A stretch of DNA of 64,000 nt from Candidatus Latescibacterota bacterium. GTDB lineage: Bacteria; Latescibacterota; UBA2968; UBA8231. Both the position numbers and the translations under genes were made by a program. The DNA lies in NCBI GenBank assembly GCA_965217585.1, contig OZ244561.1, positions 4,192,001 to 4,256,000 on the forward strand, in the 5' to 3' direction. This document shows, piece by piece, positions 2,523-60,148 of this stretch. Every line of letters starts with the position of its first letter. The stretch's first letter is position 1. The notes beneath the pieces are model-generated. The model was not told the origin of the DNA. It ran no database searches and was given only the letters and a program-made list of their open reading frames with translations.

Positions 2523-3908
<1,386 letters not shown>

Positions 3909-3917
3909 ACGCATTCA

Positions 3918-5135: not shown

Positions 5136-5149
5136 GAGAGATAGACAAA

Positions 5150-6565: not shown

Positions 6566-6571
6566 CTGAAT

Positions 6572-7183: not shown

Positions 7184-7199
7184 AAGAAAAGAGCGTTTT

Positions 7200-10189: not shown

Positions 10190-10227
10190 CAGGGGTTCAC
10201 ACCGTTCACAAGAGGGAGTATTTGGCT

Positions 10228-10449: not shown

Positions 10450-10459
10450 TACAAGTCTT

Positions 10460-10951: not shown

Positions 10952-10973
10952 ACGCCACCGTGCGAGCAGGACA

Positions 10974-11510: not shown

Positions 11511-11525
11511 TCAGCAGGAGGATCT

Positions 11526-13052: not shown

Positions 13053-13060
13053 GCTGAGCT

Positions 13061-15338
<2,278 letters not shown>

Positions 15339-37591: not shown

Positions 37592-39196
37592 TTAGTGCTG
37601 CTGCGCTGATTCAATCTTACTGGTCAGGTTTCTAAGTCCCTCCTCGATAGCCCTGCGATCCTCGGGCAGCAAAAAATCGACCATCCGGAAGAGGAATACC
37701 ATCCCTTTGCGCTCCGCAAAGTTTCTGCGTTGAGTCGCTTCGAATTGGGAAACATCCTCTATTTGTCGGCCCATGAGTTCGGCGACGTATCGACGCAATA
37801 CCGCCGGCGGTTCGCGGTAGGGCATCTTGCGCAGGAAGAGTATCAGGTCGTTGCGGTAGAAGACGCGGTCCCACAGCGAATAACCGAGTTGGCGGGCATA
37901 GGCTTCATAGTTTTTCAGCCTACCCGTATCGCCCACTCCCCAGTTTGCACCGACAGCACTCTGCGCCAGATCCTCGACCATGGAGCGGGCGATTAGGTAA
38001 TGCCCATACACAGTTGGATGCAAGTACTCAGCGATCAATTCGTTCCCGACAATGCCGTGCGGCGAGTTGGCGGCAAAGGCTTTTTCCACATCGCTCAACA
38101 GGATCTGGCCCTCGGCCGCGCCGGCCAGCTTGCGGATGATCTGATTGAATACCGTGGGGGCGCGAAAAGGTAGCCTGTCCATGTCTCGGGCGTAGACAAA
38201 GGCCTTGTGGGCCTTGCTGTGCGCCCTGCGCCTATAGTGCAGTCGGCCCAATTCAAAGTGGATGCCGGCGCAATAGGGGTCCTCATCGAGTGCTTCCTCG
38301 CAGACGGCTATGGCTTCCTGCAGTCGGCCTTGGCGTACTAGGCCGTCCAGCTCTCGCGATAAATCCCCGCCGTCGCAGTCCGAGCGCAGCGGATAGAAGT
38401 CCTTTAGATTGGCAACCAGAGTCGAAAGCAGCACCGGAGTCCCGTGCTGACGGGCCTGCAGCAGTATTTCCCCTAGATTGTCCCGGTAGTTTTCCGCAGT
38501 GACTTGGTGTTCCTCATCGAGCAGGCCAATTTCCCTGCCGACCAGATGGAGTCCGAACTTCTCCTCTGCGGGGCTCCACCACTTTTGCAGACGGTAGATC
38601 GCCTCGCTGAGAAAGTAGTAGATTCTGGAGCGCTGCAACTCCATGTAGAGCCGGATCCAGGTCCGATTGTTGCCGAATTTGCGGAAGGGAGTGGTGACCC
38701 CGTAAGGGCCGACAAATTCGTTGTGCCCCGCGTAGAGGATGATCAAGTCCGGCTCATACCCGATGATTTCGGCCGCGAAGTCCAGCAGACAGAAGGTATT
38801 GATGGCGGTCATGCCGCAGTTGATGACCTCGAAGTGTCTGTCCGGATAGACCTCGGCCAGCATTGCTGCGAGAAAATGCGGAAAAGCCGTATTGGGCGGG
38901 TTGGGAAAACCGAGCAGAGTAGAGGCCCCTAGGACAAAAATGCGCACCGTGTCAGGTGGTTTTTTTTGTGGGAAACTCGGATCGTAAGGTACGGGACGCC
39001 GGTACTGCTGTTGAAAGAAACGGTGGCCGACGTGCGGGTTGACCTCGTATACGACCTCGCCATCCCGGTGGAACGCCAGAAAAAGCCGACTGGAAGGGCC
39101 TGCATCCACTAGGTAGAGGGCAACTTCGAGCAGTACTAGAGCCCCCATCCCCAGCAGAACCGCCAGAAGATTTAGGAAAAGCGATTTCTTCAGCAT
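37592..39196 (-). CDS. membrane-anchored SGNH/GDSL-like hydrolase with TPR
   Basis: VLGAST, EVINCG, YAGHNE and EYLHPT blocks; N-terminal TM helix; TPR-like helices. Confidence 0.72.
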   Translation of the reverse strand: MLKKSLFLNLLAVLLGMGALVLLEVALYLVDAGPSSRLFLAFHRDGEVVYEVNPHVGHRFFQQQYRRPVPYDPSFPQKKPPDTVRIFVLGASTLLGFPNPPNTAFPHFLAAMLAEVYPDRHFEVINCGMTAINTFCLLDFAAEIIGYEPDLIILYAGHNEFVGPYGVTTPFRKFGNNRTWIRLYMELQRSRIYYFLSEAIYRLQKWWSPAEEKFGLHLVGREIGLLDEEHQVTAENYRDNLGEILLQARQHGTPVLLSTLVANLKDFYPLRSDCDGGDLSRELDGLVRQGRLQEAIAVCEEALDEDPYCAGIHFELGRLHYRRRAHSKAHKAFVYARDMDRLPFRAPTVFNQIIRKLAGAAEGQILLSDVEKAFAANSPHGIVGNELIAEYLHPTVYGHYLIARSMVEDLAQSAVGANWGVGDTGRLKNYEAYARQLGYSLWDRVFYRNDLILFLRKMPYREPPAVLRRYVAELMGRQIEDVSQFEATQRRNFAERKGMVFLFRMVDFLLPEDRRAIEEGLRNLTSKIESAQQH

Positions 39197-39221
39197 CGAT
39201 GCGCCAACGCCAACCAGCTAC

Positions 39222-42200
39222 CTAATACACCACGGCAATCACCCGATAGTCCACCGTGTGAGTAGCCTCCACCGCGTCCGCATCCACCGCGATCTTGCAC
39301 AGATAGAGACCAGGCGGAACTACCTTCTGCGCCTCGTCCCAGCCCTCCCACACCACGCTCTGTTCGCCAAACCCCATCTGGACTTTGTGCCAGACTCGAC
39401 GGCCGCTGAGGTCGAAAATCTCGACCCGTATTTCGCGATCTGCATTGAGGTTGCCCAGGGAGAAGCGGATCTGCATCTGATCGTTGACGCCGTCGGCGTT
39501 GGGGGTAAAGGGATTGGGAGAGATCACCACATCCCGCACCACCCGGGCGTTGATCGGTACGGCGATACTCATAGTGCTTCCCTCTCTTAGAGAGGTCGCA
39601 TCCCCGGCATCCACCTGCTGCCATATTGCCGGCCCACCGGCATCGCGGATTGATGCGTCGATCGTGCTTCCATTCAATATCACCTTGGCCTTAAAACGGA
39701 CCCGGACCAGTTCCCCTGCAGCTACAATCGATCCTTTTTCGTCCGTTGGCAACGCGTTGTACGCGGCCTGGGACAGCGGCTGCCCTGCCCGGTCAAAGGG
39801 AAATTCTCCACCCCTGCCGATCAACTTGCGAAAATAGAGAATCTCCCCTTTCAGAGAATCCTCCAGACTCTTGTACTGAAAATTGGTGACTTCTTCCTCG
39901 ATAAACGTGCCATCCGGGTTCTTACCGACAACCTGGAAGTAGACCGTGCGCCCCTGCTGCTCTGAAGGCAGGCTCAAATAAGTGAGCTGGTTCAACGGGC
40001 GACCGTCCTCATCCACGGGGACTTCTTCCCCCTCTTCCAAGATGAGCCGATTGTAGAACCGCGATTTCTCCGCTTGGGGCAACAGACCGACCTTGTGCGG
40101 CAGACGCATCAGCAGTTTGGATCCGGCCGCATCGGCATCCCCGGCGGCGATTCCTCCCTGGAAGACTTTGAGCGTATCGCCGGAGGCGGGATCAATCAAG
40201 ACCTGAAAACGCTCTCCGGCGTCCTCGAACCAGTAGTCCTGCTCTCCCGCGACCAGACGCGACCCGAGTTCGGTGAAATTCTGTCCAGTGTCATTTTGCA
40301 AGTCCTCCTCCGGCCCTATGCTCACATCTAGGAGTTTGATCGCCCGAATGGGATCGGCATCAATGAGGATCTCGTCGAAGCGCCGACTCCCCTGACCATC
40401 GGGCTCGCGCTCTACAAAGGTGGGATTGAGATAGACCTCAAAATCCTGCAGCGTGCCCAGAGATACCTCGTTGGGCCAGATTTCGCCGGTCGCTCGGCGG
40501 GCTACCGGCGGGAGAAAATGCACCCGTACAGAGCGGATACTAGCGACCATGTCGGGCACCCGGGAAACCATCTTCACCTGAATCTGCAAAAACCGCCTCG
40601 GGCTGGGAGAAGTGATGGGCTCGCCTGACTCGATGTATTTCTGACTCCAGGGGCTCCATCCACCTCCCGGTATCCTGCTGGTGACCATAGGGCCTTGGAA
40701 CTTGGCGGGCAATTTATTGTAGTCCGCTTCGGTCTTGGAATCGCCGCCGCTGCCGTAGTATTCGGTTATCTCTATCAAACGGTCTCCGGTGCGGGTGCGG
40801 ATCTCCACATCGACCAGATCGGGATCGGGGATATCGGCTTCCCACTCTATCTTGCCCAGGACGAACACGCCCGGCAATTCGATCAGGGGCGAAGTCAGAA
40901 CAACCTCCGGGGGATACCCCTCGCCAAAGACCTGCACTTCCCTGAACCCGTCCGCGAGGATCCCACTTCCCGCGGCGCGCTGGAAATCTACCGTGGACCG
41001 GGACCACAAGTAGCGTACCCGCATGGGACGCTCCAAGAGTTGTTCGTAATTTACCCGGGTCACGCCTTTCTCGCTCCGGTCTATTTGCATCCACTTCAGA
41101 TTGCCATTGGTATCTCTGCTTCCGTCCGAGACGCGGGTCAAGTACTCATGGCGGCTAGAAATACTTCCCACCCAGCGCAATTGATCGATCCAGAAGACGG
41201 CTCCCAGATCTACGATGAGTGTACCTCTATCCTCAAAGCGGGGGTCTGGTTGCCAGACCTCCTGCCTAAAATGGGTGTCGTAGATCCCGTCAAATCCCTC
41301 TGCCGCCGTCAATGGCCCGAGCAGGTCAACACTGCCGCCGCCCTCGATAATGCCTAGGGCGATATTGTTCCCTTGGGACCACACCTCGATATCCGCTAGG
41401 CGGGGGCGCTCCCGCTGGTAGGAGGCCAGTCGGCTCTGGCGATCGGCGGGAACCTGATCGAAGACCGCCTTGTCCACCTTAGTCTCTTTGCCAACTGCAT
41501 TCACAATGAAGTAATCGATGCCCCCCTGGTCCCCCAGAGGCAGGTCTATATATTCTCGCTCGGAGATTTCCTTGAACTTGTCGAATTTGCTGTCCGTGAT
41601 CTGAATGCGTAGCCGGTGTACTAGCAGGTAATTCCTACTCGGATCGTTTGCAATCAAATTGTCGAATTCGACTACTCGCCGATCCTCGTTAGGTGTCACC
41701 GTGCGCGCGGTCAAGCTCAAAGTGGCGTCCCGCTTTTGCGAAGGCGTGGTGAGGATGCGGAACTGGCGGAAGGGCTCGCCCACCTCTTCGTCCACAAAGC
41801 GCAGCACGATCTTCGAGACCGGCACCACCCGGCCCAACTCCACATCCACGTACCACTTTTCTAGGGAGCGGCTGTTATACTGGATCCGCCGCCCACTGGT
41901 GCTGGTCTGCTCGTAGGTATTCCGGCCCACGCGACGCTCCTGGCCGGCCGCGTCTTTGGCGAAATAATAAATGGACCCCTGTTCACCCAGAGGCAGGGCA
42001 TGGTACTCTTCCTCGCTCACCTCGGTGCTCGGCTCCCAATAGGTACTCGGATCGCCGTCGAGGATATTGGCGGCCATTTCCGAGCGGTAGGGCACCTCCC
42101 TAATGCCTCCCTGGTAGAAGTACCAAATCACGGGATCGCCTACTTCTATGCCTTTCTTGGCGTCCGCTTTCAAGTGCAAAATTGGGGACCCGGCTACATG

Positions 42201-42575
42201 GGCCGGACCCGTGACTATGTTGAGCGGCAGCGAGGCACCCTCTCGCTTGAGGGTCTTGACCAGTTTATCATATGCCTTCTGGTCGCCGATCCTGATGCGG
42301 AACCGCTCCATATCTTCTATGACGTTGATGTTTTTGCTAATGCGGCGCGGCGCGGCCGTGTGGGTCACGGGATCTATTGCCACTGCGTGCTCGGGCCGCC
42401 CCCACACTTCCCATTGCTCGGCCCTGTCCACCACGATTCCTTCCGCGGACATGCTGTAGCCCTGCTCGGGCGTCTGCGCCCGACTCCGATCCGTCCAACA
42501 GGCCAAAAGGCACAGCGAGAACACAGCGAGCAAGTAGACCTGCTCCAATCGGGAGGTACTTTTGCAATGAGCCAT
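39222..42575 (-). CDS. large secreted protein with C-terminal FlgD-Ig/CHU_C-like domain (paralog 1)
   Basis: Signal peptide; discoidin-like DGDPSTYW/VELG segments; SPNPFTPNADGVND...IFDLSGR...PGLYL...IAVVY; GGAG RBS above ATG 42575. Confidence 0.8.
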   Translation of the reverse strand: MAHCKSTSRLEQVYLLAVFSLCLLACWTDRSRAQTPEQGYSMSAEGIVVDRAEQWEVWGRPEHAVAIDPVTHTAAPRRISKNINVIEDMERFRIRIGDQKAYDKLVKTLKREGASLPLNIVTGPAHVAGSPILHLKADAKKGIEVGDPVIWYFYQGGIREVPYRSEMAANILDGDPSTYWEPSTEVSEEEYHALPLGEQGSIYYFAKDAAGQERRVGRNTYEQTSTSGRRIQYNSRSLEKWYVDVELGRVVPVSKIVLRFVDEEVGEPFRQFRILTTPSQKRDATLSLTARTVTPNEDRRVVEFDNLIANDPSRNYLLVHRLRIQITDSKFDKFKEISEREYIDLPLGDQGGIDYFIVNAVGKETKVDKAVFDQVPADRQSRLASYQRERPRLADIEVWSQGNNIALGIIEGGGSVDLLGPLTAAEGFDGIYDTHFRQEVWQPDPRFEDRGTLIVDLGAVFWIDQLRWVGSISSRHEYLTRVSDGSRDTNGNLKWMQIDRSEKGVTRVNYEQLLERPMRVRYLWSRSTVDFQRAAGSGILADGFREVQVFGEGYPPEVVLTSPLIELPGVFVLGKIEWEADIPDPDLVDVEIRTRTGDRLIEITEYYGSGGDSKTEADYNKLPAKFQGPMVTSRIPGGGWSPWSQKYIESGEPITSPSPRRFLQIQVKMVSRVPDMVASIRSVRVHFLPPVARRATGEIWPNEVSLGTLQDFEVYLNPTFVEREPDGQGSRRFDEILIDADPIRAIKLLDVSIGPEEDLQNDTGQNFTELGSRLVAGEQDYWFEDAGERFQVLIDPASGDTLKVFQGGIAAGDADAAGSKLLMRLPHKVGLLPQAEKSRFYNRLILEEGEEVPVDEDGRPLNQLTYLSLPSEQQGRTVYFQVVGKNPDGTFIEEEVTNFQYKSLEDSLKGEILYFRKLIGRGGEFPFDRAGQPLSQAAYNALPTDEKGSIVAAGELVRVRFKAKVILNGSTIDASIRDAGGPAIWQQVDAGDATSLREGSTMSIAVPINARVVRDVVISPNPFTPNADGVNDQMQIRFSLGNLNADREIRVEIFDLSGRRVWHKVQMGFGEQSVVWEGWDEAQKVVPPGLYLCKIAVDADAVEATHTVDYRVIAVVY

Positions 42576-42696
42576 TTCTGATATCTCCTCTTTCCAGAGT
42601 GAGTAGGCCGACTTTGCCATTTGCCATAAATAATAAAGGGCTGGGGCACAACTCAAATCGAGTTCCTCCCTCCCTCATAGGACTATGGGATTGGCA

Positions 42697-44688
42697 TCAA
42701 AAATATCCCGACATGTAATTGTACCCTCCGGGAATTTTGGTGAAATAGCTGACTGCCAGCCAGAAACCAGCGGTGACGAACTGTCCCAAGATCAACCCTA
42801 AAAAAAAGGGGCGCGTCTTCAAATACAATTGGGGACCGCCGTACTTAATCACCACCATCTTGATCAGCCATGCCAGCAAGACGCTGAAAAACACGGTGCC
42901 GAAGAGCAGGCTGACCGGAAAACCGAGCGGGTGAAAAGGCCACCACAAGAAGCGCTGGCGCGCTACCATCAGCAGCCCCATGATGGTGCCCCCAATGCCC
43001 GTGTAGATCCAGTTTTCCCAGTGCGGCCCTTCGGGAACTTGCATGCGAAAAGCGGCATTTTCAAATGGATAGCGCGAACCCACGCCAAAAAACCACCCGT
43101 CTGTATTGATGCCGCCGTATTTATACGCTATGGCCAGCATGGCCCACACCGAGCTGGCGATAGCCACTAGGATGGCTACGACCATGCCCCAGAAAATCAA
43201 ACGCCGATTCCGCCTAATCGTCTCCTCGGCCAGCTTTAGACCATTGGCGCAGGAGGCCATCACAAAGGTGAGAATGTCGCTGGCCCAGATGAATGTGAAC
43301 GCCATCGCCACAATCCCCGAAGGGCCCAACGCCCGCGTCCCAAAGCCGGCCACCACGAAGTCCGAGGCCGTCATTGGGGCAAAAATGTAAACTATCCCCC
43401 CTTCAGCTACGATGCGCGTTAGACCGATGAAGAGAATGAAGGCCAGAAAAAGATAAAAGGGCGTGATCCAGGCCGGCATCCCCGACTGCCAAATCCACAC
43501 TCCCATAAAGAGCAGACTGCCGCCCAGCACTAGGACTGCTGCCCGGTAGGAGAGTATCTCGTCGCTGTCGTCGACGGCGGAGTTTTTCTGCAGCGCTTTG
43601 CTCAAGACGGCGCGCAAATGCCCTCGGGCGGTCCACAGGCCAAAGAGGACCAAGACGATGAAGGCACCCAGCCCCTGGTGGGCGACCATGGGGCCGCCGC
43701 GGGTGTAGACACTGAGCAGCGGATCGATTTTCTGGATCCCCAGATAGGCGAAGATGCCTTGCTGGATGACATTGAGCAGATGGAAGAAGCACAGGCCGAA
43801 GAGGATATCTCGGTTGACAAAATAGGAAAAGCCCAGCATCTGGAAGCTCAGAATGAACGGGATAGTGATGGTATCGCCGAAAAGGGAAAGTTGCGTGCCC
43901 CAATAGAGGCGAGGGATGGAGGGGAAATAGGGGTTGAGCCCGTTGAGGCTCTGGAGAATGGCCGGTATGGCAAAACCCAGCCACATCAGCGGATTTTTGA
44001 AAAACGGCTTGATCAGCGAGGGCCCGGTGGCGTCGTCCTGGATCATAGCAAGGGGCACCTGGACCACGGGAAAGACGAGGCGCTCGTGCTCGACCCACTG
44101 CTTGCGCAAGATCACCATAATGGAGATCATGGCCAAGTAGAGGGCTAGGACGAAGGGAATCCAGTAGGCCAGGGGCCGCAGCCACAGCATCCAGGGAATG
44201 CCTTGGCCTTTGGGCGCTCCTTCAAAAAAATTCTGTACCTGGGCGAAGTCGTGGTGGGGAATGATCCAGTCCGGGATGAAGGGGTGCAGCAATTCGGCCC
44301 AGTTGTTCTCGGGCGTAGCGTTGTAGATCGGACTGGTGATATCCGTCAGCAGAAAGCTGGTCAGGCCCCACTCGGGGATGGCGGTGGCCACGATCCACAT
44401 GATGTAGATCAGGGCGAGTTCGGCGCGATTGAGCATCCACGAGCGGCGGATCAGGCCCAGCGCGGTATTGCCAAAGAAAACCAGAACGAAGAACAGGATG
44501 AGGGCCGCAGGGGTATTGAAATACGAAGCGATGCGGGAGCCCTGCAGCACCATATTGCAGTAGAGAACACCGGCACCGATCGCCCCGGACCCCACGGCAC
44601 CGATGAGGAGCGCGCGAAAACCGGGAGCTTCAAAGGGGATTTTAGCCAAAGCAGATTTCCTGCACTTGGAATGTTTCGACTCTGGCAA
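42697..44688 (-). CDS. polytopic membrane protein, DUF6785/DUF6784-like (putative transporter)
   Basis: Many TM segments; RKQWVEHERLVFP, WWPFHPLGF and PFFLGLILG motifs. Confidence 0.7.
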   Translation of the reverse strand: MPESKHSKCRKSALAKIPFEAPGFRALLIGAVGSGAIGAGVLYCNMVLQGSRIASYFNTPAALILFFVLVFFGNTALGLIRRSWMLNRAELALIYIMWIVATAIPEWGLTSFLLTDITSPIYNATPENNWAELLHPFIPDWIIPHHDFAQVQNFFEGAPKGQGIPWMLWLRPLAYWIPFVLALYLAMISIMVILRKQWVEHERLVFPVVQVPLAMIQDDATGPSLIKPFFKNPLMWLGFAIPAILQSLNGLNPYFPSIPRLYWGTQLSLFGDTITIPFILSFQMLGFSYFVNRDILFGLCFFHLLNVIQQGIFAYLGIQKIDPLLSVYTRGGPMVAHQGLGAFIVLVLFGLWTARGHLRAVLSKALQKNSAVDDSDEILSYRAAVLVLGGSLLFMGVWIWQSGMPAWITPFYLFLAFILFIGLTRIVAEGGIVYIFAPMTASDFVVAGFGTRALGPSGIVAMAFTFIWASDILTFVMASCANGLKLAEETIRRNRRLIFWGMVVAILVAIASSVWAMLAIAYKYGGINTDGWFFGVGSRYPFENAAFRMQVPEGPHWENWIYTGIGGTIMGLLMVARQRFLWWPFHPLGFPVSLLFGTVFFSVLLAWLIKMVVIKYGGPQLYLKTRPFFLGLILGQFVTAGFWLAVSYFTKIPGGYNYMSGYF

Positions 44689-44699
44689 TTTTTATCTGC

Positions 44700-46409
44700 T
44701 CAGGGTTCCTCTGCCGAACTAGCCAGCAGGGCTTCTGGCAGGGCCTCTTTTAGACGGTCTGCATAAACCTCAGTCTGGTCCTGGTACTTCTGGTGCAGCC
44801 CGTTGAGCAACTCGTCAAAGCGCTGGCGTTCCAGGCGCTGGACCAGAGAGGCCCGCGCTCTTTTGCGGGCCTGTTCAAAGGGCTGTTGCCGTCCTTCCTC
44901 GCGCCTTAGAACCTTGAAGATGACATACCCTTCTCCAGCGAGTACAGGGCCGCGCAATTCTCCCACGGGTGCCGCCTTGAGAGCCTCCCATAGCTGGGGA
45001 TAGGCCACCTTGTAATACTTGTTCATACAGACCAAGCCATCCGTCCCCCGGCGCCTCGTAGGCAGATTTTTTGCCTTGGCCAGTTCCAATAGATGGGTGT
45101 CTTTATCGATTTCCGTCCTGAGATTTTGTCCTTCTGCCAGAGTGGGGGTCAGCAATTCATCAAAGCATATAAGTTCTGGAAGGTAGAATTTCTCGCGGTA
45201 TTCCTCGTAGAATTGCCGCACGTCCTCTTCGCTCGGCGAGATGCTGGCGCTGACTTCCCGCTGCCGCAGCTGGATCAGCATCAATTCTTCTTTTGCTGTC
45301 TCTATCCACTGTAGAACCTCCGGCTCCTCAGGGATACCGAGTCGGGCCGCCGCAACCCCAAACATGGCAGGTGTCAGCAAAAACCGGCGCGCCACCGAGG
45401 CGATGAAGGTGCTGTCCCGAAAAGCCTGCGGATTAGCGATTCTATGGGCGCGCAATACCTCGAGGTACTCGCCCAGGGCGATCTCGTTCCCCTCGTACAT
45501 GAAGAGCGGGACCTCGCTCTGCTCTGCGGTGAACGACACCCTCTCCTTTCCCTTTGCCGACTTTGCACCTTGGCGCAAAAGCGCCAATCCTTCCGGTGCC
45601 ATGCGCCAGCCGAGTTCATGGGCCAGTAATTCCACTTTCTGAGCTTCTATCTCCTGGGCCTTCTCTGCCACCAACTGCCGTGCGATCCTAGTCCGATAGA
45701 CTTCCAGATCTGCGCGGCGGTCTGCCAAGAAGCGGACCAGTTGGTAATTCTCCCCAATGGAAAGGAGAGGCGATACGACGCCCGTTTGCAGCGAGTCAAA
45801 TACAGCTACGGGTATCCCCATGCGCTCAGCCCGGGGGCGATTGACAAATCTTATCTCTCCTCCTCGCTCGGCCGACCTAGTGTCCAACGAATGGGTCCGG
45901 GCCAGTACCGCAAAACTGTCGCCTTTGTGGATCTGCTGCCGGATCCACTGACCCTCGTCTTCGGTCTCCACGACGATAGTGGCGAGAAAACGCTCCTGGG
46001 CCATTGCCCGTTCTGCAAAAAAGCGGTGGATCTCCTCCTCGGAAACCGCAATCTGCGGTCTGATTTCCCGTTTAAAAAAGATCGCGACGATATGCTCCTG
46101 CTCTTTGGCCCTGTGCGCTTTGAGCAATTCGGGATCTTTGTCCAGTCCCTGGTCGTAGGCTTCCACGAGCAGAACCTGCCGGTCAATCAGGGTTTGCAGA
46201 TAGTCCTCCCTGGCCTTCTGCCCTTCTTCGTTCGAGCGCAGTCCCGGCAGCAGATTGAGCACGAATTTGCGCACATCTCCCGCAGTGATTTGTCGCTCTC
46301 CCACTACAGCCACGACGTCTTCCCGAGGCTCCCGGCCGCAGGTGGCCAAGGCGCAGAGCAATCCTATAAAAAACAGCACGGAGGAAGGGGTTACACTGGC
46401 TCTTTTCAT
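44700..46409 (-). CDS. parvulin/SurA-PrsA-like peptidylprolyl isomerase, probable lipoprotein
   Basis: VVAVVGERQIT, SFAVLARTHSLD..SAERGGEI, two PPIase-like halves. Confidence 0.8.
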   Translation of the reverse strand: MKRASVTPSSVLFFIGLLCALATCGREPREDVVAVVGERQITAGDVRKFVLNLLPGLRSNEEGQKAREDYLQTLIDRQVLLVEAYDQGLDKDPELLKAHRAKEQEHIVAIFFKREIRPQIAVSEEEIHRFFAERAMAQERFLATIVVETEDEGQWIRQQIHKGDSFAVLARTHSLDTRSAERGGEIRFVNRPRAERMGIPVAVFDSLQTGVVSPLLSIGENYQLVRFLADRRADLEVYRTRIARQLVAEKAQEIEAQKVELLAHELGWRMAPEGLALLRQGAKSAKGKERVSFTAEQSEVPLFMYEGNEIALGEYLEVLRAHRIANPQAFRDSTFIASVARRFLLTPAMFGVAAARLGIPEEPEVLQWIETAKEELMLIQLRQREVSASISPSEEDVRQFYEEYREKFYLPELICFDELLTPTLAEGQNLRTEIDKDTHLLELAKAKNLPTRRRGTDGLVCMNKYYKVAYPQLWEALKAAPVGELRGPVLAGEGYVIFKVLRREEGRQQPFEQARKRARASLVQRLERQRFDELLNGLHQKYQDQTEVYADRLKEALPEALLASSAEEP

Positions 46410-46870
46410 TTTCTCTATTTAAGGTGGCCCAGGACAGTAAACGACAGACTTGGATGTAGGAAATGATCGGGGATTGGGGGCCGTCAGCCGGAAAATCGAA
46501 AACCCACTTGGCTTGCTGCAATATATCTGGCAAAACTACCTGATGCAAGCTCGCTTGAATTTTCGCTTTTGCCGGAACTTGTATGCATTAATAGTTCGGA
46601 CACTTTTTGCACTTTTGGCCCAATTTGGCAAAAATAATATTTTCATAAATTATCAAAAATAAATAAGTTGTATTTATCTTGTCTATCTTTTGCTCTTCTT
46701 GTTTTTTGCTTGACCCAGACTGTTGAATTGAGTATTTATACAAACACATAAATTCAAAATACTCCTGAAATCACCATAGCCCTGTTGTCAAACTCGAGAA
46801 AGGAGGTGGATTTAGACAAGGGCAAGCACCACCAGAACTGTCTCTTTATTTTCTAGCTAAGGAGGAATAT

Positions 46871-47755: not shown

Positions 47756-47818
47756 CCGTAGAGTCATATCATGCGTCGCCCGTGTGGCGACTTCACTTTG
47801 CAGTTTGCTTCATTCCAC

Positions 47819-47853
47819 GGGCGGTGGGCGCTTCAATCCACCGTCCTTTTTTT
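47819..47853 (+). terminator. intrinsic terminator
   Basis: GGGCGGTGG-loop-CCACCGTCC followed by T7. Confidence 0.65.
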
Positions 47854-47946
47854 ATCGTTCCACAGGAGGTCTATCCGCTTTGACCGGGGGCGTGCATTTT
47901 CTTGCACTGCGCCATTTTACCACCGCCCTCCGCGGAGGAAATACCC

Positions 47947-50679: not shown

Positions 50680-50689
50680 CTCGGCTTAG

Positions 50690-52924: not shown

Positions 52925-52932
52925 GTGCACTA

Positions 52933-55698
52933 TTAATAGACCACCGCTACGGGCCTTATCTGCTCGCTGTCCTTGGCGTCTCCCTCGACCACAACCCGCA
53001 ATAGATAGATCCCTGGAGGCACCAGATTTCCGGCCGCATCCCTCCCATTCCATCCGAGGCCGGGAATAACACTCTGATCATAGTGGCCGCTCAACCCCTC
53101 GCTGTCGTGGAGCGCGAATACCAGTTGGCCCGAAAGGTCGAAGAGGTGCAGGCTGATTTTAGCTTCGCGGGTAATGGTCAGGACATCGTACTCAATGCTC
53201 AGAATATCGTTGATTCCATCATCGTTGGGCGTAAAGGGATTGGGAGATACCCTTAGAGAGCCGATGAGCTCTCCTCGGGCGATGGCCGGACTCAACACCG
53301 TGATGCCCGAAGCCGTCGGCAGATCTCCTTCCCCTAATAGCGTTGCATTTCCAGGGGTAATTCGCTGTATGGCGCCTTCCTGGGTTGACAGGATGGCCTG
53401 CCCCGCGACCACAGTGCTGTAGAGCAGCACCTTGCTGCGGAAGAATATCTTCAGCAGTCTCTCTCCACCTTCGGCTGGTCTGGCAATGTGGGGAAATTTT
53501 ACCGTGAAGTTGCGCTCCGCCACCTCCGCAATCGCAAAGGTATCGCCGGCGGCAGCTACCGAATAGGGCAGGACGTGTATACTGCCGTCCTCGAGTTGCA
53601 CGACAGAATTTCCCTCGCTATCGAGGGCGATATCCGCATTCAGGTCCCGTTCGGCTAGGACTGAACCAACTTCGTCTACAATCTGGATTTTGTCGATGCC
53701 CAGAACCTGGGTGGGAGTTTCAATCTGGAAGGCATCAAACCCCGCCACCCCCTCGATGTCCATCAGCGCTTTCACCGCATAGGTGAACTGCACCGTCTCA
53801 AAGGCTTCTACTTCGCGCGGATAAATTTCGGCGATCAGGTCGTCAGCCAGCGGCGGTGCCAGGTACTCGATAGTCAATTGCTCTATCATTTTGGTGGCGT
53901 CTATGCGGCTGTTCTGGAACTCTAGCGAGAACTGGATGTAGCGCCGCGGACCGGGCGAGAGAATTGACGTGCCTCCAGGTGCATCCCCGCCGCTATAAGG
54001 TGCCGACCAAGGGCTCCAGTTTTGTAGGTCTTCCTCAACCGCCCACTGGACCCACGGGTCCTCCAGTTTTAGGTATTCCTCGCGGCCGAGTGGTTCGTTG
54101 GGGTTTTTCAGTGAAGTCGCCTGTTCGGGATCGGCGAGCCGCTGGATATTTCTGCGCTTATAGACAATGGGGGTGGGATCGCTCCCCGTCCGGGTGCGAA
54201 TGAGGATATCGGTGGCGACTCGACGACCCGGCGGGGCGACGCGTTCGGTCCAACTGATATTGCCCCAGGTGGCGACCTCCCCTAGATCGAAGACGGGAGA
54301 AATGTAGGAACTGGCGGCGACAAATCCTTGTCCGTAGACCTCCAATTCGTCTATCTCATAGGGGAAGGACGAGGTGGATTTAATGCGCACGTAGCGCACC
54401 AAGCGGGCCGGCTTCACCTCTATATCGAGTACGGGCTCCTCATTTTCCGCGCTCCTCAACAGGGGCACATAGTCGTTGGTGCGGGGCGAAAACCTGCCAA
54501 AACTGTCGCGCACCAAGTTGCGGCCGTCGTGCAGCAAAAGCTCGAATTGTCGGAGAAAATCGTTCTGGAAAGGGAATTGCGGGGCGTTCTGGACCGTATT
54601 GCGCGGATAGAAGCGGATCCTATTGATGCCAATGGGAGTGCCCAAATCGAGCACGATGAAAGTACCCAGTATCGGCTGGTCCCCTTTGCGTTCAAAGGCG
54701 TCTTCTGATCCACCCGGCTCAATCAATTCTAGCAGAATAGGTGCCAGGGCGGTCGTGGAAAGATCTTTGACCGACGGCGCTGTAATTTCGCCGTTGAACT
54801 CGAGGGCTCTTTGAGCCACGTTTTCACCTAGGGCAATGTGAACCGGGCTCAGCGCCACCGGCAACACCACGGGATTCTTGGTCCCGGGAGGCAGCCGTTG
54901 CCCCTCGTCTTCGTCCTGCAAGCTTTTTGCCGCTGGGCGGGCGACCAACTTGCCCCGCTGTCTTCCTGGTCTCTGTGTCTGCTCCCCTGTTTCCTTGTTT
55001 TTACAGATCACCTTATAACAGTCTGCAAGCGTCTTTTGCTCCGCGCCCACCTGCTGGAAGTAAGTCTCGCACTCTCCCCAATCTTCCGGGATGAGACCGG
55101 TTCCCTGGGCGACATGGGCACCGGAAATCTGCAATTCGAAGGTCTTCGCTTCCTCGGCACAACTGAGGTCGCCTCCTTCCTCCTCGGCAAAGCCGTCCCT
55201 GGTCTCTCCCTCCGGCCGGATCGGGTCCAGGGCCTCGCCGACCTGCTGCATGCGTTCTGCGAGATCGTCCCCGACCTGGAATCCGATTAACACGGTGGAC
55301 AGGTTGCCTTGGACGCTGGTCTCCAAGCTGGCGATCCCGCTGAGCGGAGAGGTCGCCTCTATCAGCATCTGGTTGACTAGGTCCATTTGCTCTGCGAGGA
55401 GTTCGGGCTCAACATCAACCACGGTCTTGATCTGAACGGAGGGAACGACGTCGTCCAAGATCGACAGATCGATCAGATTGCCAGGGGCACTGCCCACCTC
55501 GGTCGACTTCAGTCCCACTATGTGTTCGGCGGGAAAAGTGGTTATATTCCCCCCCAAGGTCGTGCCCCCCCAAGAGACATTGCCGTTGACGCCGACCCGC
55601 AAGAACTCCACCGCCCTAGCCTCGTCTGTCCACATGGGACCTAAAACTCCAATGGTGAAAAACGCGGATAGAAGCTGATACAGTGGATGGCGCACCAT
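52933..55698 (-). CDS. large secreted protein with C-terminal FlgD-Ig/CHU_C-like domain (paralog 2)
   Basis: LDLG..INRIRFYPR, IRTRTG, WSPWS, SPGPRRY, SPNPFTPNDDGIND...VAVVY. Confidence 0.8.
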   Translation of the reverse strand: MVRHPLYQLLSAFFTIGVLGPMWTDEARAVEFLRVGVNGNVSWGGTTLGGNITTFPAEHIVGLKSTEVGSAPGNLIDLSILDDVVPSVQIKTVVDVEPELLAEQMDLVNQMLIEATSPLSGIASLETSVQGNLSTVLIGFQVGDDLAERMQQVGEALDPIRPEGETRDGFAEEEGGDLSCAEEAKTFELQISGAHVAQGTGLIPEDWGECETYFQQVGAEQKTLADCYKVICKNKETGEQTQRPGRQRGKLVARPAAKSLQDEDEGQRLPPGTKNPVVLPVALSPVHIALGENVAQRALEFNGEITAPSVKDLSTTALAPILLELIEPGGSEDAFERKGDQPILGTFIVLDLGTPIGINRIRFYPRNTVQNAPQFPFQNDFLRQFELLLHDGRNLVRDSFGRFSPRTNDYVPLLRSAENEEPVLDIEVKPARLVRYVRIKSTSSFPYEIDELEVYGQGFVAASSYISPVFDLGEVATWGNISWTERVAPPGRRVATDILIRTRTGSDPTPIVYKRRNIQRLADPEQATSLKNPNEPLGREEYLKLEDPWVQWAVEEDLQNWSPWSAPYSGGDAPGGTSILSPGPRRYIQFSLEFQNSRIDATKMIEQLTIEYLAPPLADDLIAEIYPREVEAFETVQFTYAVKALMDIEGVAGFDAFQIETPTQVLGIDKIQIVDEVGSVLAERDLNADIALDSEGNSVVQLEDGSIHVLPYSVAAAGDTFAIAEVAERNFTVKFPHIARPAEGGERLLKIFFRSKVLLYSTVVAGQAILSTQEGAIQRITPGNATLLGEGDLPTASGITVLSPAIARGELIGSLRVSPNPFTPNDDGINDILSIEYDVLTITREAKISLHLFDLSGQLVFALHDSEGLSGHYDQSVIPGLGWNGRDAAGNLVPPGIYLLRVVVEGDAKDSEQIRPVAVVY

Positions 55699-55859
55699 AA
55701 GAAGTCCTCCGCCGTCGAAAGAAAATCTTCCCGTAGTCCCGTAGTATAGTAAAATTCCGCGCCCATTAAAAATTTCATTCTCACCGCATCTTTGACTAAA
55801 TTAGGGCTGCCAGAATTGGAACCAACGCCGCGTTTTAATTTCTGAGGAGGGCACAGGGG

Positions 55860-57992
55860 ATGTCGATCCGTTATGCGTCTCTACTTCTCACCTTTCTGGT
55901 TCTCCTATGCGCCAGGACCAACGCCTTCAATGTGTATCACCTAGGCGGCACCGACGGCCATCCGTGGCAGACGGCCCTGTCCTACGAGCCAGGGGACTAT
56001 CTGGTGCTCAAACCCGATGGCACGGCCGACCAGCGTCTGCCCCTCGCGGCTCCCTCCGCCCATCCGACTTGGGAGGACACTCTAGCTGATCGCATAGACA
56101 GTTTGGGCGGGCAATGGCTGCGACCCTTCTTCCTCCCCGATACCCTCAACCTAGCCCAAGATGGGATCCGGGAACGCTACGATAACGACTTCTTTGTCGA
56201 CGGCAACCTGTTTACCAGCGGTGCGAGCTACGATGTGGAATCTCAGACGAGGCTGATGCGTCCGGCGGTCGATGGCGATCCGCAGACGGCTTCTTTCTAC
56301 ACGGCTTCGGCTTCGAGCGATCCGACCATTCGCCGGGGCATCTACATTCAGAACAATATTGTAGATCTGGGGGTAAACTATCCGGTCAATCGCATCCGCT
56401 TCTTTCCCCGTCTGGGCACCAGCAATCCCAATATCGATGCGATTCTCGCGGCGATGGCCCCTCCCAAGCTGCACAAAGAGGATCTGCTGGAGGAGGATTT
56501 CTCCGCCAATTTCATGCCTTGGTTCGAAGTGGCCGCCGCCAACAGCGACCAGAATCTGGGGCCTTTCACTGGTGGATGGCTGCGAGGAATCATCCCCGGC
56601 ATCCCCAACGCCAAAAGTGATTCGCGCTTCACCGTCCTCTTCACTGACCGAGAGAATCTGGACGTGCTGGTGGATTTTCGCTTTCCCACCCAGCAGTTGC
56701 GCTGGATTGCCTACCGCGTCCTCGACCCCATCCGCAACTACGAAATTGCCGAATTTCAAGTGTTCGGCTCGGGCTATATCCAACGCGCGGTCTACACCAC
56801 GGCCGTATTGGACTTCGGCCAGCCCATGGCCTGGGGCAACATCCGCTGGAAGGGAACACGCGATCCTCAGGCCAAACTCCTCATCCGCACCCGCACCGGC
56901 CACGACGACGAGCCGCTGCTCTACTGGCAGAAAACCAGTATCCCCGGCGAGTTCAAGCAAGTCACCCGCAAGGAATACGATATCACCCTCAAACGCGAAC
57001 GACGCCTTACTCTCGACGAACAAAACTGGAGTTTCTGGTCGGCACCTTATGCTTGGCCGGCTGGGTTGGCCGATACCACCTTGGAGGCTGCAGCCTGGCA
57101 GGATGGCACGCCTATTCTGTCGCCGGGTCCGGCGCGCTACCTGCAACTGCAACTGCTTTTTCTCTCCACCCAGACGGATGCGGCCAAACTGCGGGAGTTG
57201 GAAATCCAGTTTTCGCCTCCGGCTGCCCTGCGCGCCGTCGGTGAGATCTGGCCGTTGGATGTGTCCCGTACCCACAGTACCGCCTTCACCTATAGTGTCC
57301 TACCCACCTTTGATCGCGACACCCAGGGTTTTGACCGACTGGAGATTTTTACCCTGACTCGGGCTGACACTGTGCGCTCGGTGCGCGTCGATGGGGCGGA
57401 GGTGAGCGATCAGTTTCCACCCCAAATCCAAAAGGACCGGATTCTGGTCGCCCTACCTCGGTTGCAAGGGGGGGACGACACCTTCAAGCTAGTCGAAATC
57501 GAGTTCGACGCGCGCGTGGTGCGCTACGGCACGGAATTCCAGGGCTGGATCTTCGACAGCGAGGGCACGGGGGTCAAACAGTTGATTGAGCCGGGCGATG
57601 CCACGGTGGATTTTCCCGGCAATGCGCTGGGGGTGCGTCCGACCGGGCTGGGCGATGCGTTGCTGACACAGGTGTCGGTCTTTCCCAATCCGTTCACGCC
57701 CAACGGCGATGGTCTCAACGATGTGGCTCGCTTTCAGTTTCAACTCCACGAGGTATCTGCCCCGCGCGATTTGCGGCTGCGGGTGTATGATGTGTCGGGT
57801 CGGCTGGTGCGTCAGTTGGATCGTCAGTTGGCCATTCGGGGTCTGTTTGGCGAGGGGGTTGAGGATCCGGTCTGGGATGGTCTGGATGAGGGCGGTGGTT
57901 TGGTTGCGCCGGGGATTTACCTCTACCGGATTTCGCTGGACACAGACGAGGGAGCAAGAGAAAAGCTAGGCACTATCTCGGTCGTCTATTGA
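55860..57992 (+). CDS. secreted protein with C-terminal FlgD-Ig/CHU_C-like domain (paralog 3)
   Basis: Signal peptide; VNRIRFFPR, IRTRTG, WSFWS, SPGPARY, PNPFTPNGDGLND...ISVVY. Confidence 0.82.
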   Translation: MSIRYASLLLTFLVLLCARTNAFNVYHLGGTDGHPWQTALSYEPGDYLVLKPDGTADQRLPLAAPSAHPTWEDTLADRIDSLGGQWLRPFFLPDTLNLAQDGIRERYDNDFFVDGNLFTSGASYDVESQTRLMRPAVDGDPQTASFYTASASSDPTIRRGIYIQNNIVDLGVNYPVNRIRFFPRLGTSNPNIDAILAAMAPPKLHKEDLLEEDFSANFMPWFEVAAANSDQNLGPFTGGWLRGIIPGIPNAKSDSRFTVLFTDRENLDVLVDFRFPTQQLRWIAYRVLDPIRNYEIAEFQVFGSGYIQRAVYTTAVLDFGQPMAWGNIRWKGTRDPQAKLLIRTRTGHDDEPLLYWQKTSIPGEFKQVTRKEYDITLKRERRLTLDEQNWSFWSAPYAWPAGLADTTLEAAAWQDGTPILSPGPARYLQLQLLFLSTQTDAAKLRELEIQFSPPAALRAVGEIWPLDVSRTHSTAFTYSVLPTFDRDTQGFDRLEIFTLTRADTVRSVRVDGAEVSDQFPPQIQKDRILVALPRLQGGDDTFKLVEIEFDARVVRYGTEFQGWIFDSEGTGVKQLIEPGDATVDFPGNALGVRPTGLGDALLTQVSVFPNPFTPNGDGLNDVARFQFQLHEVSAPRDLRLRVYDVSGRLVRQLDRQLAIRGLFGEGVEDPVWDGLDEGGGLVAPGIYLYRISLDTDEGAREKLGTISVVY

Positions 57993-58015
57993 CTCAATTG
58001 AGAGGAAAACAGGAT

Positions 58016-60148
58016 ATGTCGGCCCGTTATGCGCCTCTACTTCTCACCTTTCTAATTCTCCTATGTGCCAAGACCAGTGCCTTCAATGTGTATCATCTGG
58101 GCGGCACAGACGGCAATCAGTGGCAGACAGCCCTGTCCTACGAGCCAGGGGAGTATCAGGTCCTCAACCCCGATGGCACTGCCAGCCAGCGCCTCCCCCT
58201 CATAGCCCCCTCCACCCACCCGACCTGGGAGGACACTCTGGCCGATCGCATAGACAGTGTGGGCGGGCAATGGCTGCGGCCCTTCTTCGTCCCCGATACC
58301 CTCAACCTAGCCCAGGATGGGATCCGGGAACGCTACAGAAATGACTTCTTTGTCGACGGCAACCTGTTTACCAGCGGCCCGAGCTACGAAGTGAGTGCCC
58401 AGACGGGGCTGATGAGACCGGCGGTCGACGGCGACCCGCAGACGGCCTCTTTCTACACCGCCTCAGCCACGAGCGATCCGACCATTCGCAGGGGCATCTA
58501 CATCCAGAACAATGTCGTAGATCTGGGGGTAAACTATCCGGTCAATCGCATCCGCTTTTTTCCCCGTCTGGGCACCAGCAATCCCAGAATCGACGAGATT
58601 CTCGAGGACATGGCCCCTCCCAAGCTACGCAAAGAGGACCTGCTGGAGGAGGATTTCTCCGTCAATTTCATGCCTTGGTTCGAACTGGCCGCCGCCAACA
58701 GCGACCAGACTCTGGTGTCGGACGCTGGGGCGTATCTGCGAGGAATCATCCCCGGCGTCCCCAACGCCAAGAGTGATTCGCGCTTCACCGTCCTCTTCGC
58801 CGACCGGGAGAATCTGGACGTGGTCATGGATTTTCGCTTTCCCACCCAGCAGTTGCGCTGGATTTCCTATCGCGTCCTCGACCCCATCCGCAACTACGAA
58901 ATTGCCGAATTTCAAGTATTCGGCTCGGGCTATATCCAACGAGCGGTCTACACTACTGCAGTACTAGACTTCGGCCAGCCCATGGCCTGGGGCAACATCC
59001 GCTGGAAAGGAGAACGCGACCCCCAGGCCCAACTCCTCATCCGCACCCGCACCGGCCACGACGACGAGCCGCTGCTCTACTGGCAGAAAACCAGTATACC
59101 CGGCGAGTTCAAGAAAATCACCCGCAAGGAATACAATATCACCCTCAAACGCGAACGACGCCTCACCCTCGACGAACAAAACTGGAGCTTCTGGTCGGCT
59201 CCTTATGCTTGGCACGCCGGCTTGGCCGATTCCACCCTGGAGGCCGCCGCTTGGCGGGATGGCACCCCCATCCTGTCGCCGGGGCCGGCGCGCTACCTGC
59301 AACTGCAGCTCCTCTTCCTCTCCACCCAGACGGATGCGGCCAAGCTGCGGGAATTGGAAATCCAGTTTTCGCCTCCGGCTGCCCTGCGCGCCGTCGGTGA
59401 GATCTGGCCGTTGGACGTGTCCCGCACCCACAGCACCGCCTTCACCTACAGTATTCTGCCCACCTTTGATCGCGACACCCAAGGTTTTGACCAGCTAGAG
59501 ATTTTCACCCTGACTCGGGCCGACACCGTGCGCTCGGTACGCGTTGATGGGGTGGAAGTGCGCGACCAGTTCCCACCCGAAATCCAAGCGGACCGGATTC
59601 TGGTCGGCCTGCCCCGGCTGCAAGGGAGCGACGACACCTTCAAGCTGGTCGAAGTCGAGTTCGACGCGCGCGTGGTGCGCTACGGCACGGAATTCCAGGG
59701 CTGGATCTTCGACAGCGAGGGCACGGGGGTCAAACAGTTGATTGAGCCGGGCGATGCCACGGTGGATTTTCCCGGCAATGCGCTGGGGGTGCGTTCTGCC
59801 GGGCTGGGCGATGAGTTGCTGACTCGGGTGTCGATCTTTCCCAATCCGTTCACGCCCAACGGCGATGGTCTCAACGATGTAGCTCGCTTTCAGTTTCAAC
59901 TCCACGAGGTATCCGCCCCACGCGACTTGCGGCTGCGTCTGTATGATGTGTCGGGTCGGCTGGTGCGGCAGTTGGATCGTCAGTTGGCCATTCGGGGTCT
60001 GTTTGGCGAGGGGGTCGAGGATCCGGTCTGGGATGGTCTGGATGAGGGCGGTGGTTTGGTTGCGCCCGGGATTTACCTCTATCGGATTTCGCTGGACACA
60101 GACGAGGGAAGAAAGGAAAAGGTAGGCACTATCTCGGTCGCCTATTAG
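58016..60148 (+). CDS. secreted protein, tandem duplicate of the previous gene (paralog 4)
   Basis: Same length (710 aa) and colinear with 55860-57992; ATG 58016. Confidence 0.82.
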   Translation: MSARYAPLLLTFLILLCAKTSAFNVYHLGGTDGNQWQTALSYEPGEYQVLNPDGTASQRLPLIAPSTHPTWEDTLADRIDSVGGQWLRPFFVPDTLNLAQDGIRERYRNDFFVDGNLFTSGPSYEVSAQTGLMRPAVDGDPQTASFYTASATSDPTIRRGIYIQNNVVDLGVNYPVNRIRFFPRLGTSNPRIDEILEDMAPPKLRKEDLLEEDFSVNFMPWFELAAANSDQTLVSDAGAYLRGIIPGVPNAKSDSRFTVLFADRENLDVVMDFRFPTQQLRWISYRVLDPIRNYEIAEFQVFGSGYIQRAVYTTAVLDFGQPMAWGNIRWKGERDPQAQLLIRTRTGHDDEPLLYWQKTSIPGEFKKITRKEYNITLKRERRLTLDEQNWSFWSAPYAWHAGLADSTLEAAAWRDGTPILSPGPARYLQLQLLFLSTQTDAAKLRELEIQFSPPAALRAVGEIWPLDVSRTHSTAFTYSILPTFDRDTQGFDQLEIFTLTRADTVRSVRVDGVEVRDQFPPEIQADRILVGLPRLQGSDDTFKLVEVEFDARVVRYGTEFQGWIFDSEGTGVKQLIEPGDATVDFPGNALGVRSAGLGDELLTRVSIFPNPFTPNGDGLNDVARFQFQLHEVSAPRDLRLRLYDVSGRLVRQLDRQLAIRGLFGEGVEDPVWDGLDEGGGLVAPGIYLYRISLDTDEGRKEKVGTISVAY

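Follow-up and report, generated by a model that had tools for sequence, protein, structure and literature searches.

In Bacteroidota, polysaccharide utilization loci (PULs) of the SusC/SusD type form many paralogous loci per genome, each with an outer-membrane barrel of about 900–1000 amino acids (aa), proteins that bind carbohydrates at the cell surface and, in many cases, a transporter in the inner membrane. The type-B cargo genes of the T9SS (type IX secretion system) often adjoin an outer-membrane barrel gene, as in SprB-SprF and PG1035-PorP, according to the available portions of two papers (PMC9143113, PMC12618676). The accessible part of the 2015 Latescibacter genome analysis assumed non-specific porins (PMC4454575). 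We analyzed a ten-gene block (positions 37592–60148) in a 64,000-nucleotide stretch of DNA from a Candidatus Latescibacterota bacterium, hereafter the window, which covers positions 4192001–4256000 of a single 7.32-Mb contig (OZ244561.1). A preliminary description had taken the block for a candidate capture/export locus at the cell surface, possibly analogous to a PUL. The block proved to be a single "type I" copy of a modular system of the outer membrane. The core of the module comprises four families, namely surface proteins with a T9SS tail and a probable multi-β-sandwich build, drawn from distinct, old subfamilies (C), a predicted large outer-membrane β-barrel (O), a predicted CBM9-fold protein (B) and a parvulin chaperone (P), with one to four C genes encoded per O gene. 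In this genome the module has expanded to 48 loci, and it is inherited as a unit. By analogy, it might work as a PUL-like glycan capture and uptake system built from parts unrelated to SusC/SusD, a proposal for which we see the chances as evenly balanced.

To count the copies, 5680 non-overlapping open reading frames (ORFs) were crudely called on the genome, and the paralogues of every window protein were used to build a hidden Markov model of its family; members had to cover 60% or more of the model. The genome contains 163 C, 78 O, 71 D (DUF6785 proteins), 48 B, 41 P, 15 G (GT39-TPR proteins) and 6 SGNH-TPR genes, of which the O, C, B, P and D genes occupy 847,800 bases, or 11.6% of the 7.3-Mb genome. 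The DUF6785 profile had 78 matches in the genome, and scoring 150 of 260 candidates gave a minimum of 149 CHU_C tails. We regarded a gene as co-localized when a partner stood within five genes, and took 200 shuffles of the gene labels as the null. By this measure, 70 of the 78 O genes have a C neighbor (shuffle mean 20, maximum 34) and 131 of the 163 C genes an O neighbor (mean 21, maximum 32), while O also stands near 31 of the 41 P genes (mean 5.3, maximum 10) and 34 of the 48 B genes (mean 6.2, maximum 14). The shuffles ignore tandem duplication and thus overstate independence; the effect is large nonetheless. The preliminary description had treated all ten genes as one module. Its core of C, O, B and P stood, whereas the DUF6785 protein proved to be loosely attached, the GT39-TPR protein is confined to one locus subtype and the SGNH-TPR protein is rare.

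All 78 O genes fall within 48 loci, 43 of which contain C genes. O, C and B occur together in 29 loci, O, C and P likewise in 29, and all four in 25, with D as well in 15; the order of the genes varies. When the tail was removed, the best paralogue was found within six genes for only 26 of the 163 C proteins, so the C genes of one locus are not recent copies of each other. The set present in the window (C subfamilies CL, Cb and Cd with O, G, B and P) recurs at 2214628, 2933280, 3729252 and 5299998 and twice near 6961217, giving about seven sites in the genome. Other locus types carry {CL, Ca, Cb/Ce}, {Cc, Cf, Ch}, {Ce, Cc, Ce} or {Cg}+OOO. The O paralogues are old (median identity 32%), and the O subfamily tracks that of the adjoining C gene (adjusted mutual information 0.23–0.35 against a shuffled maximum of 0.12–0.17), which indicates that loci duplicate and diverge as units, although kin share labels and this measure alone is no proof of physical co-evolution between O and C.

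The distribution of the module was surveyed in 151 genomes of the phylum, where f1 denotes the family of the window and f2 and f3 are families of the same class. O was found in 94 of the 151 genomes, including 63/63 of f1 and most other families, but in 0/30 of f2 and 0/19 of f3. B was present in 83 (f1 61/63, f2 0/30, f3 0/19, f6 2/2, f10 13/13 and f13 3/3), and the phylogenetic profiles of O and B match across the sample, the members of which are kin and not independent. The T9SS core gene SprA, in contrast, occurs in 146 of the 151 genomes, including 49/49 of f2 and f3, where O is 0/49. O and B are therefore lineage accessories and not part of the T9SS core. There are more than 1000 homologues of O; among the 120 listed, all are unnamed or called "hypothetical protein" and none has a Pfam domain, and those with a named source come nearly all from Latescibacteria or Latescibacterota metagenome-assembled genomes, one being labelled Gemmatimonadetes. 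Going by these source names, the system appears to be specific to Latescibacterota.

Three loci examined in the genome G009, which belongs to another family, have the arrangements C-O-O-P-B-C, B-C-C-O-G-P and B-C-O-G. Conserved co-localization, which the preliminary description had named as the test of its proposal, thus holds far above shuffles within the genome and extends to another taxonomic family. One could still regard the genes as chance neighbors, or as products of repeated unrelated duplication without a joint function, because their order is variable and D, G and SGNH-TPR are loosely attached. We find this scarcely credible in view of the clustering above 200 shuffles, the synteny in another family, the matching profiles and the contigs from RNA libraries that join B and O. 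In deeper families, tandem O arrays are kept and the neighbors are partly different. In the genome G003, from a distant family, the genes flanking O are not C genes but unlabelled ORFs of about 430–450 aa (L020:16558-17916, L022:2405-5121, L023:7178-8509 and L028:11118-12452), which may represent a different partner family.

O (g6; 47902 or 47947 to 50679, plus strand; 925 aa) had been noted beforehand as a large candidate outer-membrane protein. Its AlphaFold2 model (pLDDT 73.1, pTM 0.71, 54-row alignment) identifies it as a large outer-membrane β-barrel of an undescribed family without a specific relative. By sequence or profile, O had no match in Pfam, NCBIfam or the protein data bank (PDB), and 34 O homologues compared with Pfam at E ≤ 1 matched nothing, including TonB_dep_Rec, Plug and PF11751. 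Profile comparison by hhalign with DUF5916, TonB-dependent transporter (TBDT), PorV-like and SprA sets from the same genome gave less than 1% probability each (0.2% for the 15 TBDTs), with the self control at 100%, and none of the 20 PF00593 matches in the genome coincides with any O gene. The predicted structure is a closed antiparallel barrel with about 26–29 strands of 12–16 residues in hairpins, an inserted β-domain (residues ~262–350) and a low-confidence acidic loop (496–631). The maximum 19-residue hydropathy past the signal peptide is 1.13, and there is no helical transmembrane segment.

In a Foldseek search with the O model, 179 PDB chains matched at E ≤ 1e-3, and 50 of the 50 listed are outer-membrane barrels, with MtrB (E 1.4e-11), SlpA, FimD, LptD and TBDTs at the top and TM-scores of 0.13–0.37. 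The top 50 matches by VIA-align, an aligner independent of Foldseek, were also all outer-membrane barrels, including SlpA (Z 14.4, rmsd 9.1 over 402 residues), MtrB (Z 10.9, rmsd 6.7 over 419 residues) and the SusC-type barrels 5t3r_D (Z 9.2, 388 residues) and 8aa4_A (Z 8.3). The best structural matches, MtrB (6r2q_B) and SlpA (7zgx_A), are large barrels that sheathe or anchor partners, but their TM-scores against O reach only 0.18–0.34 and there is no sequence similarity. An Mtr-like redox reading was rejected, because none of the O (78), B (48), C (163), P (41) and D (71) proteins has a CxxCH motif; the genome has three multihaem candidates, none of them near O.

Several features of O are conserved. 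The C-termini of the paralogues end in a strand of the form F-I/V-T-V-Y/F-A-G-L, similar to a β-signal. The columns that are invariant down to 23% identity are mostly acidic and form a cluster between residues 538 and 625 (D538, N539, D540, D541, D543, D547, D588, D608, N612, D616, D621 and D625), which we read as a putative metal (calcium) site. The first ~70 residues of the mature protein (~45–120; window 48079–48309) are highly conserved, with a column conservation of 0.78–0.84. The stretch 19–96 is modelled with low confidence and the conserved segment has a pLDDT of only 24–46, which suggests that this segment folds only upon meeting a partner.

The comparison with SusC/SusD loci is one of layout, with SusC-type barrels among the structural matches of O. 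Unlike SusC, O is not a TBDT and no plug was recognized; SusD is missing, T9SS cargo takes the place of surface lipoproteins, the core loci lack carbohydrate-active enzymes and the module has its own parvulin. None of the ten window proteins matched the Pfam families TonB_dep_Rec, Plug or SusD at E ≤ 0.01, and together with the hhalign comparison with TBDTs this bears out the earlier remark that no SusC or SusD is recognizable in the block.

Four genes of the block encode C proteins: g2 (39222–42656, minus strand; 1144 aa, the long subfamily CL), g8 (52933–55698, minus strand; subfamily Cb), and g9 (55860–57992) and g10 (57989–60148), both on the plus strand and of subfamily Cd. They had been described as paralogues with immunoglobulin-like tails, and they are: g10 is a recent tandem duplicate of g9 with 90% identity, g9 and g8 share 28% over 621 columns (E 1e-55), and g9 and g2 have two modules in common. 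By subfamily number, g2 belongs to subfamily 5 (n=32), g8 to 15 (n=19) and g9 to 17 (n=14). The true start of g2 is likely the Met before the signal peptide, downstream of the TTG. All four tails match CHU_C (PF13585) above its cut-off of 27 bits (36.9 in g2, 32.7 in g8, 31.3 in g9 and 31.7 in g10), and 35/35 C homologues match it as well, in agreement with the suggestion that the tails are T9SS sorting signals. TIGR04131, the strict type-B C-terminal domain, scored 19–22 bits on the C tails, below its 35-bit cut-off, and there was a sub-threshold NCBIfam similarity to the PorU C-terminus. The body of C had no Pfam family; F5/8 type C was touched by 2/35 homologues, weakly also by g2, and CBM74 by 4/35. 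A DGDxxTxW motif is present in g2, and we take it to resemble discoidin/CBM32 domains.

The search for T9SS core genes that the preliminary description had proposed found SprA (604.8 bits) and PorU (627.5 bits) in the genome, with a PorV-like gene directly beside porU (153.8 bits, below cut-off) and GldK only in part (80.6 bits). The CHU_C-type tails and the cargo genes next to an outer-membrane barrel gene recall SprB-SprF and PG1035-PorP. O could accordingly anchor or shuttle its cognate C proteins after T9SS export in the manner of PorP/SprF, and the system would serve adhesion to a host matrix or to particles without uptake. We consider this the main rival to the capture and uptake system, although a clearly less probable one. 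The tails match a type-B-like family, O and C are adjacent and diversify as units, and cognate adjacent shuttles are a known paradigm, to judge from the portions available of PMC9143113 and PMC12618676. Relatives of the organism occur in sponge-labelled runs. PorP/SprF (PF11751) was found neither among the proteins of the genome nor in O, with control genomes equally silent. Weak PorP-like hits of 20–28 bits appeared in 0/63 genomes of f1, 25/30 of the O-less f2 and 0/19 of f3, as well as in G009, which has O. Complementarity of O and PorP across families was therefore only partial, because f3 has neither and G009 has both.

Other observations speak against such a role of O. The genome encodes 89 further proteins with the same tail on a different body, and only 8 of these 89 stand near O, compared with 9.7 expected, which ties O to the body of C and not to the tail. 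One of the 89 (L029:2464-4947, that is G000:C1:317841-320324) combines a CotH kinase and a lamin-tail domain with a FlgD-Ig-type T9SS tail. With about 26 strands and 900 aa, O far exceeds a PorP-type barrel, being about three times larger, and it shows no profile similarity to PorV-like proteins. It is also absent from f2 and f3, sister families that bear a T9SS, and a pure anchor would leave the partners B, P and D unexplained.

B (g5; 46871–47755, plus strand) is a secreted protein without a T9SS tail. The earlier claim of a CBM9-like protein had Pfam behind it at 20.0 bits with CBM9_1 (PF06452), below the cut-off of 23.4, and PF06452 is annotated in many B homologues. The AlphaFold2 model, a confident one (pLDDT 81.2, pTM 0.79), supports the claim: the fold of B is a predicted CBM9 β-sandwich, matched in Foldseek by the CBM9 of Thermotoga maritima Xyn10A (1i82_A, E 1.4e-9, TM 0.75 normalized to the target), 7nwn (E 3.9e-9) and 4jpq, followed by the haem-binding DOMON-like subunits EbdC (2ivf_C, E 9.3e-5) and NxrC (7b04_C). 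The identity to CBM9 structures is 13–15%, and unlike these B is a stand-alone secreted protein and not a glycosidase module. Among 1.84 billion representatives, the B family comprises 858 clusters (50% identity) at E ≤ 1e-3. Of 15 longer proteins that contain the B domain and come from other organisms, six end in a C-type T9SS tail, so the domain works outside the cell in at least some relatives; none of the 15 is a fusion of B with O. Compared by hhalign, B and the CBM9 part of the DUF5916 proteins of the genome gave 69% probability (E 4.3e-5). The idea that B and O are a split CBM9-DUF5916 protein was rejected as homology, as O is unlike the remainder of DUF5916 proteins, and we keep it as an analogy.

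In 41 of the 48 B paralogues, an AXA-type signal-peptide end stands directly before a His (column 22), and His132 is present in 40 of these 41, while both are absent from five of the six full-length paralogues without His22. Among 111 diverse representatives of the family, 91 have the first His, 69 of which also have the second, whereas only six of the other 20 have it. In 89 of 106 representatives, precursor position 20–25 is where the first His is found. Two CBM9-DUF5916-type proteins of the same genome also start with His after the signal peptide. B is thus predicted to mature to an N-terminal His22 that is coupled to His132 by co-variation, and to our knowledge, such a pair is not known from CBM9. 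An N-terminal His created by cleavage, a coupled second His and a β-sandwich are shared with the histidine-brace proteins (lytic polysaccharide monooxygenases (LPMOs), CopC and YcnI), but none of their structures was among the 50 listed Foldseek matches of B. One could imagine that B founds a class of metalloproteins not seen before, in which a CBM9/DOMON scaffold carries an N-terminal histidine that belongs to a copper histidine brace or ligates a haem, and that it forms with O and C an oxidative, surface-bound machine attacking and taking up glycans; we deem this unlikely. The literature searched did not link "histidine brace" with CBM9, and the co-mentions with DOMON looked incidental as far as the search listing tells.

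Some features distinguish the B subfamily of the window. Adjacent cysteines C253-C254 (window 47620–47631) are invariant in it and a third His, His108, is conserved. Most other B subfamilies lack these two features, the pair occurring in 9/48 and His108 in 11/48 B paralogues. The C-terminus (residues ~278–290, window end 47755) has a conserved W-G-R-I-K in a terminal helix modelled with low confidence. This end could be a docking or sorting element, as we suspect because B lacks a T9SS tail.

For the remaining partners, Pfam upheld the identities assigned earlier as parvulin, DUF6785 and GT39-TPR, with matches above cut-off in g4, g3 and g7. P (g4; 44700–46409, minus strand) is a SurA/PrsA-like parvulin chaperone and probable lipoprotein (LATC), matching Rotamase_2 at 63.5 bits (cut-off 27) and Rotamase at 38.2 bits (cut-off 21.7), with SurA_N_3 below cut-off; a lipobox is frequent in its paralogues. 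D (g3; 42697–44688, minus strand) is a putative importer, a polytopic protein of the inner membrane in which about 14 segments are hydrophobic. It matches DUF6785 (PF20581, E 1.6e-125, 419.9 bits) and DUF6784 (PF20580, E 8.7e-27, 93.7 bits) over its full length. As many as 28 of the 71 D genes stand away from core loci. Around 20 of these 28 standalone sites, a scan of the nearest neighbors, two per side, took in 82 of 122 genes and found 7 PhyH dioxygenases, 5 GFO/IDH/MocA oxidoreductases, 3 aldo-keto reductases, 3 sulfatases and 3 FG-GAP proteins, besides GH116, a BNR protein, a 3-keto-disaccharide hydrolase and ThuA. Because catabolic enzymes adjoin its standalone copies, D would be an importer that feeds catabolism, and the uncharacterized DUF6785/6784 family appears to account for much of the substrate import in this bacterium. 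A tandem D array with the arrangement D-D-D-x-x-D lies at G000:C1:5989067-5999255.

G (g7; 50690–52924, plus strand) starts 11 nucleotides past O and is a GT-C glycosyltransferase with a polytopic N-terminal half (PMT_2, PF13231, 48.1 bits, cut-off 26.1) and a C-terminal TPR domain that matches many TPR families. The peripheral g1 (37592–39196, minus strand) encodes a membrane-anchored SGNH/GDSL-like protein with TPR (TPR_19; Lipase_GDSL_2 at 29.6 bits, below the cut-off of 32.9).

The B and P genes are separated by the AT-rich divergent spacer (46410–46870) pointed out before, which has a GC content of 0.386. It contains a promoter-like TTGACC-17 nt-TATTTA (about 46710–46738) and two elements resembling a Shine-Dalgarno (SD) sequence, a distal GAAAGGAGGT (about 46799–46808) and, ahead of the start codon of B, a proximal AAGGAGGA. 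In the genome, GAAAGGAG was found upstream of 16/36 B genes compared with 25/2410 background genes, and CTTGACA upstream of 10/36 compared with 100/2410. The upstream regions of B genes are AT-rich (GC 0.437 versus 0.521) and their SD is strong; AAGGAGG lies within -200 to +30 of 21 of the 48 B genes, with two copies in five. Besides the proximal SD, many B starts have a GAAAGGAGG element 59–147 nucleotides upstream (window 46799–46808), and this element resembles the STAB-SD mRNA-stabilizing element of Bacillus cry genes. B genes thus seem to be built for very high expression, which contig depth cannot rank.

RNA libraries, some labelled "sponge metagenome", contain parts of 46000–52000, and contigs of four RNA-library runs from three studies were placed on 37592–57591. 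The X4 contig (46869–50633, 3777 nt) spans B and O, and the X7 contig (46791–51133, with a 57-nt skip) spans both and reaches into G, starting just before the distal GAAAGGAGG element. The contigs begin at 46791, 46846 and 46869, and the X1 and X2 contigs cover B and leave parts of the locus uncovered. The check for co-expression proposed earlier thus produced single contigs bridging B and O in RNA libraries of two sponge studies. The module appears to be transcribed in sponge-associated populations, the contigs being from RNA libraries in which DNA carry-over is possible.

High expression of B would also suit a structural part of the envelope. In that case, O would be a pillar like Deinococcus SlpA, or an export pore for a layer of glycan or protein, and C and B an outer layer modified by the GT-C and SGNH proteins. 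The best VIA-align match of O is indeed SlpA of the S-layer deinoxanthin-binding complex, which also ranks 2–4 in Foldseek, and a glycosyltransferase and an SGNH protein are present in the window locus. We rate this role as improbable, less likely than surface display or anchoring: the TM-scores to SlpA are low (0.18–0.28), G is found in a minority of loci and SGNH in six, no SLH domain was detected by Pfam in the ten window proteins, and 48 divergent loci with differing C sets look like diversified specificities rather than a single structural layer.

For the capture and uptake system, we envisage that C proteins would cross the outer membrane via SprA and remain on the surface, where their discoidin/CBM-like domains would bind a polymeric substrate, with glycans of the host or of algae as the likeliest candidates. 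B would bind or process the substrate and O would provide the passage through the outer membrane, with P folding O or the cargo in the periplasm. The neighboring DUF6785/6784 protein would import the products across the inner membrane, and in the subtype of the window the GT-C/TPR enzyme might glycosylate a component in the periplasm. Capture and uptake, as raised in the preliminary description, thus stand as what we infer from these parts, whereas export had no specific support.

A number of points weigh against this proposal. Unlike most PULs, the core loci have no glycoside hydrolase, lyase or peptidase, with few unlabelled genes in the locus strings. The substrate-binding role of the C body would be drawn from weak domain matches. 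No plug domain or TonB box is recognizable in O, so energized uptake is unsupported, and passive passage via a barrel of about 26 strands would be a guess. B lacks the T9SS tail that could bring it to the surface. D stands near O in only 25 of 71 cases (shuffle mean 9.3, maximum 18), and P near D in 10 of 41 (mean 4.9, maximum 11), which is no enrichment. The kinship of the genomes behind the matching profiles also counts here, as does the nature of the RNA evidence, which consists of contigs from libraries that may contain DNA and the depth of which cannot rank genes.

Regarding the block as a whole, all ten ORFs were found where the preliminary description had placed them, with a signal peptide or hydrophobic segments in every protein, and Pfam confirmed the domain names given there, the GDSL and CBM9_1 matches being weak. 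The block is less GC-rich (0.569) than its flanks (0.603 and 0.598), as had been observed, and than the genome (0.595). A foreign origin was rejected as a reading of this dip, since the gene families of the block have the GC content of the genome and the dip is therefore uninformative on origin. The flanks encode housekeeping functions (Na+-NQR, ATP synthase, PFK, PGK and DnaE). A complete-looking operon nqrA-F for the Na+-translocating NADH:quinone reductase lies at window 2535–8438, followed by an F-type ATP synthase operon at 9359–15338. Directly past the block, on the opposite strand, an ABC exporter (60780–63071; ABC_membrane and ABC_tran) has weak N-terminal bPH and zinc-ribbon matches. 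An Rfam scan of 36000–61000 found no family.

Our literature search, which did not extend to supplementary files and subscription journals, found no description of the module, no papers on DUF6785 or DUF5916 and none that link Latescibacter with T9SS. The available parts of PMC4454575 and PMC7081726 do not mention the module, nor do the titles and abstracts of papers on Latescibacter and polysaccharide utilization loci describe it. In the literature searched, no described system accounts for the module, in keeping with the earlier view of a lineage-specific system.

The feeding of the uncultured Latescibacterota and their sponge-associated relatives has largely been a matter of guesswork. The module takes up 11.6% of this genome, was found in every one of the 63 genomes sampled from its family, and consists in part of outer-membrane barrel and surface-protein families without a Pfam entry or name. 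If it is a PUL analogue, the arrangement of one barrel plus surface binders per substrate would have arisen twice in the FCB (Fibrobacterota-Chlorobiota-Bacteroidota) group from unrelated parts, T9SS cargo could serve nutrient capture outside Bacteroidota, and a ready set of loci would be at hand for predicting the substrate range of the symbionts. The coupled N-terminal histidine of B offers a concrete and cheap biochemical lead; if the oxidative reading were true, the B-O-C machine would be a type of nutrient acquisition distinct from both SusCD PULs and secreted LPMOs.

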